DNA from: a virus
Lineage: Duplodnaviria > Heunggongvirae > Uroviricota > Caudoviricetes
Strand: one strand, 5' to 3'
Virus record (IMG/VR): IMGVR_UViG_2802429241_000003
Length of the DNA stretch: 9,751 bases
This document shows positions 2,664 through 6,859 of this stretch, in pieces. The position numbers and the translations under genes are program-made. A model generated the notes under the pieces. The model searched no databases and was not told the origin of the DNA. It was given only the letters and a program-made list of their open reading frames with translations. Every line of letters begins with the position of its first letter. The first letter of the stretch is position 1.

Positions 2664-3320
2664 ATGAAAAGCAACGACGAGAACATCAAGAAAGAAATAG
2701 GTCTGCGCATTCAGACTCTACGGAAACAATCCGGCATGACTGCCGGAGATCTCCAGCAAGTCACTGGAATAGGCTTAAGCACCTTGCAGAACTATGAGGC
2801 CGGATTAAGACAACCATCTATACCTGCCATCAAGAAAATCGCGCACGCCCTGAAAGCATCAGCGCCTTATATCGCGTGCTTAACAGATAACCCGTTCCCA
2901 CCCCAGAATACTAACGCTCCTGTTATTCCTGGGCTTGTAGCTATAAAAAATGACATAGCATCGCACGCCGGAGAAAAGCCAGTGCTGGCGATAGAACAGG
3001 AGATTCTACGAAGCAAGAACATCAACCCATCGTCTCTGTCAGTTCTCCAGAGCAACGATGAGTTAATGTCACCAACAATATCCCCAGGCTCCCAAGTCCT
3101 GATTAATACAGACGATACAGAGATTCATGAGGGGATCTATGCCCTTGAAGACAGAAATGGCCTGGTTGTTTTGAGGCACTGTAGAGTCATACCGGGTGAC
3201 AATGCTGTTATGCTGTCAACCGAAAGGGATGCTGAAATGAACACTAAGCATCTGAATAACGAGGAATTTAAGCGTTATAAAGTTCTTGGCCGCGTAGTTA
3301 GTGTTGTCAACTGGTTATGA
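2664..3320 (+). CDS. CI-like phage repressor: N-terminal HTH_XRE domain plus C-terminal LexA/S24-peptidase-like domain
   Basis: 218-aa ORF. HTH segment LRKQSGMTAGDLQQVTGIGLSTLQNYEAG; C-terminal segment with M-S-P-T-I-S-P-G-S-QVLIN spacing typical of the S24 fold. Divergent from the cro-like gene across palindromic operators. Confidence 0.8.
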   Translation: MKSNDENIKKEIGLRIQTLRKQSGMTAGDLQQVTGIGLSTLQNYEAGLRQPSIPAIKKIAHALKASAPYIACLTDNPFPPQNTNAPVIPGLVAIKNDIASHAGEKPVLAIEQEILRSKNINPSSLSVLQSNDELMSPTISPGSQVLINTDDTEIHEGIYALEDRNGLVVLRHCRVIPGDNAVMLSTERDAEMNTKHLNNEEFKRYKVLGRVVSVVNWL

Positions 3321-3344: not shown

Positions 3345-3362
3345 ATTTCTACGCTCAAAAAA

Positions 3363-6222: not shown

Positions 6223-6406
6223 TTTTTAGCTCCATATAAAACTCTATCTTTGTTCTCAATTTTAACAAACTGCCCATCTTGGGAATGTGTTGTTCCTTGT
6301 GAGAACTATACATTCCCATTTCTGGTATATCAAGAAAATTAAAAGCTCGGCATTCAAACCCACGCTATGTGGTTGTCTCTGTTAAAATCCCGCCGTATTG
6401 ACATGA

Positions 6407-6667: not shown

Positions 6668-6859
6668 ATGACAAACCTACCCCATGACTATTACGTCAAC
6701 CTCGTAAAGATCCTTCTCAAGAAAGCCTCATACGCCGATAAATTCCGCCTGGCTGAAATCATAGAGCGCGAAGCTATGCGCATCGCCAGCAACGATAACG
6801 CTGTTTCTGACGCAAAAATCTCCCTCGTAACCAAAGTAGTTATGGGAGGTGCAAAATGA
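6668..6859 (+). CDS. Hypothetical small protein (63 aa), translationally coupled to the downstream antirepressor-like gene
   Basis: ATG at 6668 with GGAGA SD 8 nt upstream; stop TGA overlaps the ATG of the next gene (ATGA at 6856-6859). Confidence 0.45.
   Translation: MTNLPHDYYVNLVKILLKKASYADKFRLAEIIEREAMRIASNDNAVSDAKISLVTKVVMGGAK

Follow-up and report, generated by a model that had tools for sequence, protein, structure and literature searches.

A CI-type repressor lacking the S24 catalytic residues, and a putatively RNA-gated antirepressor, in a phage-plasmid of Escherichia and its relatives

Introduction

The repressors of the Gifsy phages, coliphage 186 and N15 have been reported to remain uncleaved and to be inactivated by LexA-controlled antirepressors; those of the Gifsy phages are short (~136 amino acids) and have no C-terminal domain (PMC3121763). 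In the plasmid prophage N15, control is divided between immB (the CB repressor, Cro and their operators) and immA (a small processed RNA, icd and antA), and a separate LexA-controlled gene, antC, triggers induction (PMC4488713). In Gifsy-1 the antirepressor is encoded in the unit isrK-orf45-anrP, for which translational coupling has been demonstrated experimentally (Hershko-Shalev et al. 2016, PMC4825925). Here we describe a locus of this kind in a 9.75-kb stretch of Caudoviricetes DNA (9,751 nucleotides, IMG/VR record IMGVR_UViG_2802429241_000003), which we call the window and whose coordinates are used unless another sequence is named. The open reading frame (ORF) at 2664−3320 (plus strand) is predicted to encode the immunity repressor, of the lambda-CI/LexA type, of a myovirus-type phage-plasmid of Escherichia and relatives, and its C-terminal domain has kept the S24 fold and lost the catalytic residues of the S24 protease.

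The window covers the part of a circular phage-plasmid of ~48.5 kb that is given over to immunity, anti-immunity and partition. It is matched at 95−99% identity by 72 plasmid records, Escherichia predominating and the E. coli ATCC 25922 plasmid NZ_CP009073 among them, and also by three deposited phages (Yersinia phage vB_YpM_39, 41 and 44). In the complete ATCC 25922 element (L002 below), which was used for whole-element scans, genes for a myovirus-type head, tail and baseplate stand beside lysis genes, genes for RepA and ParA, a RelE/ParE toxin-antitoxin pair and just one antirepressor gene; an integrase gene is missing. The findings described below suggest that this widespread ~48-kb phage-plasmid of E. 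coli, Citrobacter and Klebsiella, which is carried by the reference strain ATCC 25922 and was also obtained as Yersinia phages, adopts an N15-style control of lysogeny.

Loss of the catalytic residues and of the cleavage loop

A preliminary description of this DNA, made by eye, had proposed that the repressor has an S24-type C-terminal domain in which Leu134 and Arg171 stand where the catalytic Ser and Lys are expected. The ORF and the residue numbering on which this rested are right, and both positions hold up in alignment. In a MAFFT alignment of 47 sequences (A2: the window protein and 46 relatives, taken from an exhaustive HMMER search with the C-terminal domain that returned 49 hits, mostly of 23−40% identity), the consensus G-D-S-M-x-P-T-I..G-D is aligned with N-D-E-L-M-S-P-T-I-S-P-G-S of the window protein, and the consensus V-K-R with L-R-H. 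Leu134 (codon TTA, 3063−3065, plus strand) falls at the site of the S24 nucleophile Ser, S119 in LexA, and Arg171 (codon AGG, 3174−3176, plus strand), 37 residues further on within V-V-L-R-H-C-R and followed by an invariant His172-Cys173-Arg174, falls at the site of the general-base Lys, K156 in LexA. Ser and Lys occupy these two columns in 31 of the 47 sequences, against Leu and Arg in the window protein. Comparison of A2 with E. coli LexA by hhalign gives the same pairs (L134 with S119, M135 with M120, R171 with K156; Prob 95.1%, E-value 3.4e-8); the numbering of the LexA query agrees with the textbook S119 and K156.

Both replacements are fixed in the close family of this repressor. In a shallow family alignment (A1, 12 sequences of 60−100% identity), D132, L134, M135, P137, T138, I139 and R171-H172-C173-R174 are invariant in 12 of 12 members, and because L134 and R171 are both invariant, a sequencing error or a chance substitution at these residues is excluded. 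Among the 16 A2 sequences that lack the Ser and Lys pair, 15 have lost both residues, the replacement pairs being L/R in six, A/R in five, and V/R, N/R, L/E and L/L in one each. The cleavage-site loop follows the same division: the Ser/Lys sequences keep a linker of the form A-G-x-G...E (Ala in 23/31, the two Gly in 24/31 and 22/31, Glu in 20/31), and nine loop columns of this linker are gapped in 9−12 of the 16 degenerate sequences, the window protein included. In the relatives sampled, Ser, Lys and cleavage loop have thus nearly always been lost jointly, which offers a sequence rule for recognising CI-like repressors that are not cleaved in the SOS response; such a rule would be useful for predicting whether a prophage can be induced by DNA-damaging antibiotics.

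A natural allele bears on the same site. The repressor gene of ATCC 25922 (L002 22659−23321, minus strand) is otherwise 100% identical to that of the window and carries a 6-nt in-frame insertion (Leu-Lys), equivalent to window 3060−3068, so that the protein reads N-D-E-L-K-L-M-S-P, with the insertion exactly at the former nucleophile. An active S24 site is unlikely to tolerate two additional residues at its nucleophile. Judged by its sequence, the repressor lacks every catalytic hallmark of the self-cleaving S24 family and keeps the fold; since the Ser nucleophile, the Lys general base and the Ala-Gly cleavage loop are lost, it would be unable to inactivate itself on RecA filaments, and we infer that it is not cleavable.

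Domains, fold and family of the repressor

The 218-amino-acid protein consists of an N-terminal helix-turn-helix (HTH) domain of the HTH_3 type (residues 16−69, 2709−2870, plus strand; PF01381, E-value 4.5e-11), near-invariant in the family, and a C-terminal pseudo-S24 domain (residues ~107−218, 2982−3317, plus strand) upstream of which the cleavage-site loop is deleted. The Pfam match to Peptidase_S24 (PF00717, residues 113−212) is sub-threshold, with 18.4 bits against a cutoff of 23.3 and an E-value of 0.0018. Two PHROG families match: phrog_4 'transcriptional repressor', a large CI/LexA-type family, covers residues 4−217 (E-value 9.6e-27), and phrog_6201 'CI-like repressor' covers residues 110−214 (E-value 2.9e-9). 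The A2 profile matches Protein Data Bank (PDB) chains of UmuD' (E-value 3.6e-9), lambda CI and LexA, and the AlphaFold2 model built from A2 (predicted local distance difference test, pLDDT, 92.6) has a C-terminal domain that matches the LexA-like beta fold. The S24-type domain proposed in the preliminary description is thus borne out by profile, PHROG and structure prediction, and A2 reveals no Ser/Lys dyad in it.

The LexA, PDB and fold matches came with the deep alignment. The A1 profile gave no signal against LexA, neither A1 nor the isolated C-terminal domain found S24 matches among PDB sequences, and a first AlphaFold2 model, from A1, was poor in the C-terminal domain (pLDDT 35−50) and was superseded by the A2 model. 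A tblastn search of phages with the repressor found no characterised close relative, the best match outside the family being a Vibrio cI at 26% identity. Compared with LexA, lambda CI and UmuD, the window protein shares the fold and the motif skeleton x-D-x-[SL]-M-x-P-T-I ... G-R-V-V, and with lambda CI the two-domain architecture; it differs from them in the change of Ser to Leu and of Lys to Arg, in the deleted cleavage loop, and in falling below the Pfam gathering threshold. The retained fold presumably serves dimerisation and cooperativity.

The N15 repressor CB is a remote homologue (hhalign against A2: Prob 97.8%, E-value 6.5e-13, 190 columns). It too combines an HTH with an S24-fold domain that has lost the dyad, although the replacements there are Gln/Gln (in V-G-N-Q-I-Q and I-T-I-Q-R-L) and here Leu/Arg. 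The published behaviour of CB supports, by analogy, the notion of a non-autocleavable repressor that needs an antirepressor.

The switch region and candidate operators

The palindrome ACCAC-N5-GTGGT occurs five times in the window, and three of these copies lie between the repressor gene and the divergent early (lytic) operon, whose first gene (1995−2489, minus strand; 164 amino acids, phrog_7452) has the Cro position and is found at the same place in the related loci L003−L005, L007 and L008. A scan for palindromes and comparison with relatives define the three as candidate operators: AACCACGATATGTGGTA (2508−2524), whose position is conserved in L003−L005; AACCACATATCGTGAGT (2529−2545), with a weaker half-site; and AACCACTAAATGTGGTA (2611−2627), which lies 37 bp upstream of the repressor start codon and likely mediates autoregulation. 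The layout resembles that of N15, where by annotation operators lie between the repressor gene and a divergent cro, as the three candidate palindromes do here at 2508−2627. A perfect copy, AACCACATTTTGTGGTT (3362−3378), also seen in relatives, follows just past the repressor stop codon and upstream of orf124-parA, and a copy with one mismatch, ACCCACGCTATGTGGTT (6358−6374), lies between two divergent promoters ~60 bp upstream of an isrK-like leader. A spacer of N6 was considered and rejected; N5 is the correct spacing.

The complete plasmid L002 holds six good copies, all intergenic, including a perfect one, AACCACGTAACGTGGTT (L002 13017−13033), 52 bp upstream of repA; similar copies precede repA in L003 and L004, which suggests that the immunity repressor also controls plasmid replication. 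In L003−L005, whose repressors are 60−65% identical, the palindromes are again found at equivalent places and their spacers drift, as is consistent with an HTH domain that is almost invariant in the family. The repressor probably binds these palindromes, and the five copies likely mark its regulon, which through the site at 3362−3378 may extend to the partition operon.

A putatively RNA-gated antirepressor module

The element encodes, as the preliminary description had said, an antirepressor at 6856−8124 (plus strand). The product of this gene, ant, has 422 amino acids with ORF6N (E-value 9e-20) and Rha (Phage_pRha, E-value 4e-12) domains, and matches many PHROG anti-repressor families (E-values down to 1e-58). 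What had escaped the earlier reading is that ant lies behind a leader with isrK and C4 antisense-RNA elements, of the type seen in P1 immI or N15 immA, that would gate its expression. The isrK-like leader RNA (6433−6505, plus strand; RF01394, 67.3 bits against a gathering threshold, GA, of 50) ends in an intrinsic terminator (stem 6486−6499 and a T-run) and is overlapped by a c4-a1b1 target element (6420−6472; RF03163, 41.7 bits, below the GA of 46.7). It is followed by a C4-type antisense RNA (6530−6618, plus strand; RF01695, 72.3 bits against a GA of 45) that spans model positions 1−87 of 87 and folds with the architecture of the Rfam model (minimum free energy -46.3 kcal/mol).

The pairing partners of the C4 RNA can be read off the sequence. 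A 14-nt b2-type target (6664−6677, plus strand) is the perfect complement of the C4 loop GGUUUGUCAUUGUG (6570−6583) and spans the start codon, ATG at 6668, of a leader ORF of 63 codons (6668−6859, plus strand; phrog_7886) that is conserved in L003 and has the position of P1 icd and Gifsy-1 orf45. The single-stranded C4 segment ACGCCAA (6590−6596) can pair with TTGGCGT both upstream (6458−6464) and downstream (6623−6629), and 6472−6479 can pair with C4 6577−6584. These predicted pairings make up the a1/b1−a2/b2 architecture of P1 c4. The stop codon of the leader ORF overlaps the start of ant in ATGA (6856−6859), a layout from which translational coupling of the two is predicted. By its sequence, then, ant is the last gene of a module of the P1 immI / N15 immA type, made up of isrK-like leader, C4 RNA, leader ORF and ant.

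The ant slot itself is variable. Ant of the window (422 amino acids) and that of ATCC 25922 (380 amino acids) are nearly identical except for a mosaic replacement in the ORF6N domain (window 6943−7215, Ant residues ~30−120), which includes the 42 extra residues. The N-terminal domain is ~57% identical to Stx-phage Ant, and this relationship accounts for a nucleotide match of 6450−6630 to Stx phages. Across relatives the slot is a recombination hot spot, holding ORF6N and Rha, Rha only, ORF6N only, or nothing.

Comparison with known immunity systems

The two-part design of a protease-dead CI with an RNA-gated antirepressor is already known from N15, and the present locus is a member of the N15/P1-immI kind and not new in principle. 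Beyond the repressor and the divergent operon, it shares with N15 the plasmid prophage state, an antirepressor operon preceded by Rfam isrK and C4 matches, and a ParA together with a RelE/ParE toxin-antitoxin pair. N15, however, is a linear siphovirus with a protelomerase, whereas the element described here is a circular myovirus-type plasmid with RepA, and Ant and the leader ORF are not detectably homologous to their N15 counterparts (tblastn of gp31 and gp32 gave no hit in the element).

The immI region of P1 and P7 (c4-icd-ant1/2) is matched by the full-length C4 RNA (RF01695, 72 bits), by the a1/b1 and a2/b2 targets with b2 over the start of the leader ORF, and by an ant placed downstream in a coupled layout; it differs in that the locus described here has a terminated leader of the isrK type, and in that C1, the primary repressor of P1, is not known as a CI/LexA-type protein. 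Gifsy-1 isrK-orf45-anrP is alike in three respects, an isrK-family leader that includes a terminator, a small ORF ahead of the antirepressor gene with a stop/start overlap AUGA, and an antirepressor as output, but the C-terminal domain that is wholly missing from the Gifsy repressors is here kept in a catalytically dead form. The CI/Tum pair of coliphage 186 is different: Tum is LexA-controlled, no sequence similarity is detectable, and 186 is an integrated P2-like phage.

SOS input

The preliminary description had seen no CTGT-N8-ACAG box, and scanning agrees: there is no exact match in the window, and each of the five matches with one mismatch (chance expectation 2.6) falls within an ORF. 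The only exact match in the complete element (L002 45852−45867) lies inside a late structural coding sequence, with ~0.7 expected by chance, and is probably meaningless. Neither the window nor the complete 48.5-kb element yielded a LexA box of 13/20 or more, whereas the same scan finds two strong boxes (16/20) in N15, which uses them and AntC for SOS induction; scans of L003−L005 yielded nothing credible. Homologues of the small N15 proteins, which would include an antC-like gene, were not found in the 48.5-kb element. Lacking both a LexA box and a gene like antC, the element is therefore without a recognisable SOS input. Cleavage by an ImmA/IrrE-type protease was considered and rejected, there being no such gene annotated in the complete element.

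The RNA switch itself may be the input, as IsrK is in Gifsy-1; antirepressors may be provided in trans by co-resident prophages; or induction may be spontaneous only.

Co-occurrence of the degenerate repressor and the module

We compared seven loci with degenerate repressors and three with intact Ser/Lys. The isrK/C4 module is kept in five of the seven degenerate loci. In the Citrobacter loci L003 and L004, and likewise in L007 and L008, two distant degenerate relatives (L/R and L/L, ~31−33% identity), it is found at the corresponding place downstream of parA, and the effector at the relatives' module loci is a Rha-only or an ORF6N protein. The three Ser/Lys-bearing relatives lie in chromosomal, P2-like and Mu-like contexts, and within 10 kb of them no ParA, ORF6N or Rha was found. 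These counts, from a small sample, are consistent with a partnership of dead repressor and module.

Favoured explanation and its rivals

We consider it likely that the region as a whole encodes a protease-dead CI-type immunity repressor that is derepressed by the C4-gated 422-amino-acid Ant. The repressor would sit on the three palindromes between its own gene and the divergent early operon, as in a classical switch, and on further sites, one between its own gene and orf124-parA, one ahead of the antirepressor module and one ahead of repA. Transcription of the module would start at the isrK-like leader, which carries its own terminator, and the C4 RNA, processed from the same transcript, would pair with the start codon of the leader ORF; as translation of ant is tied to the leader ORF through the ATGA overlap, Ant would be made only once C4 repression had been overcome. 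The ORF6N/Rha protein would then bind the repressor, and such binding is the most likely route to derepression.

Several observations weigh against this account. The alignment supplied to AlphaFold2 contained true S24 proteins, and the fold match is not independent of sequence homology. A specific protein−protein pair would not be expected to combine a conserved repressor with a mosaic ant slot, as is the case here. The palindrome at 6358−6374 lies upstream of the inferred -35 element (TTGACA, 6398−6403) and not over the promoter, and it is absent from L003 and L004; repressor control of ant is therefore uncertain. L005 (Klebsiella aerogenes) has the same Leu/Arg repressor without the isrK/C4/ant module, its slot (L005 12200−14260) holding only a phrog_23465 ORF and a 70-amino-acid ORF, and L009 is also without a C4/ant module, so that Ant is not obligatory for such elements. 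The lack of both a LexA box and an antC-like gene leaves the link between Ant and induction loose, and in N15 the immA antirepressor is an anti-immunity system, SOS induction there running via the LexA-controlled AntC that is lacking here; Ant therefore need not be the induction trigger. The N15 precedent, the missing SOS elements and the two loci without the module all speak for an alternative that we regard as possible but rather unlikely, in which the C4-gated Ant acts against immunity or at the time of infection, in the manner of N15 immA, P1 immI and P22 immI, and induction is spontaneous or depends on antirepressors of co-resident prophages acting in trans or on some other signal. Trans-acting antirepressor crosstalk among the Gifsy phages (PMC3121763) fits such induction in trans, whereas the finding that in Gifsy-1 AnrP expression driven by IsrK leads to prophage induction and is responsive to oxidative stress (PMC4825925) argues for a role of Ant in induction, as does the retention of the module in most degenerate loci.

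Other explanations concern the repressor itself. A shifted register that leaves a functional Ser/Lys dyad, for example with Ser136, and hence an ordinary RecA-cleavable CI, had been named in the preliminary description as what would overturn its claim; it is refuted at the sequence level and keeps hardly any probability. Ser136 does lie two residues past Leu134, and the linker of the window protein does contain an Ala102-Gly103 pair, but 10 of the 12 family members have Ala at position 136, Ala-Gly is present in only 4 of the 12, the G-x-G...E loop is deleted, no conserved Lys lies near position 171, and the ATCC 25922 allele has its insertion at this very site. MAFFT and hhalign moreover agree on the register, which is anchored by M135, P137, T138 and the C-terminal G-R-V-V motif. 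It is also very unlikely that lysogeny is held by another HTH protein (181 amino acids, 5677−6222, or 101 amino acids, 8934−9239) and that the palindromes belong to the Cro-position protein. Cro-type and CI-type proteins share operators, and repressor binding is here a prediction, but the divergent CI/Cro-type layout with its three palindromes is conserved in relatives and the 181-amino-acid gene is not, and it is the 218-amino-acid protein that matches CI repressor PHROGs and N15 CB and is annotated as 'repressor protein' in AP019710. We give a comparably slight chance to the idea that the invariant Arg171-His172-Cys173-Arg174 has been repurposed as a redox, metal or ligand sensor, or as a Cys/His self-cleavage centre, for SOS-independent induction. 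The R-H-C-R motif does not vary among family members down to 60% identity and is seen again in P0017 (31% identity), and no SOS wiring was found; the LexA alignment, however, puts Cys173 at the buried Leu158 and His172 at Arg157, on opposite strand faces, a geometry that makes a Cys/His dyad unlikely, the cleavage loop is deleted, and other degenerate relatives are without the His or without the Cys. Improbable, finally, is a reading in which this lineage, devoid of SOS wiring, takes the isrK/C4 RNA switch as its only induction input, or in which the pseudo-active site (R-H-C-R opposite Leu134) has turned into a pocket that senses a signal or partner; if true, either would mean that a dead protease has given rise to a lysis-lysogeny switch independent of DNA damage. 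The missing LexA link is the only question of wider interest that the locus raises, and the conserved pseudo-active site is also notable.

Other features of the window and the element

Two proposed sources of comparison were set aside: phage vB_YpM_HQ103 was rejected as a relative, being an unrelated P2-like phage, and a paper on phage-plasmids of enterotoxigenic E. coli treats P1 and SSU5 types only.

Downstream of the repressor, a conserved 124-amino-acid ORF (phrog_7632), preceded by the candidate operator at 3362−3378, is followed by ParA (222 amino acids) and an 85-amino-acid ORF (together 3923−4883, plus strand). The early operon also includes, by Pfam, a DUF1064 protein (520−852, minus strand) and a Ref-family RecA-dependent nuclease (PF16786; 849−1253, minus strand); the element thus encodes a RecA-dependent enzyme although its own repressor has lost RecA-dependent cleavage.

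Next to the antirepressor module, a 16-nt inverted repeat (TGGGAATGTGTTGTTC / GAACTATACATTCCCA, 6280−6318) overlaps a good promoter-like site, TTGATA-17-TATAGT, on the minus strand (6333−6305). This site would serve the gene of the 181-amino-acid HTH protein (5677−6222), divergent from the ant leader, whose C-terminal ~100 amino acids match no family. The inverted repeat is possibly an operator of a second regulator of the region.

Between the partition genes and this HTH gene lies a strong full-length match to ryfA RNA (5106−5404, minus strand; 136 bits against a GA of 80), overlapped by a short hydrophobic ORF within 5134−5316 (minus strand; MKKYCMCIFIVVTGALF...). In Salmonella, the product of ryfA is the small toxin TimP, under repression by the small RNA TimR. 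The ryfA locus of the window may therefore be a type I toxin-antitoxin system that stabilises the plasmid prophage.

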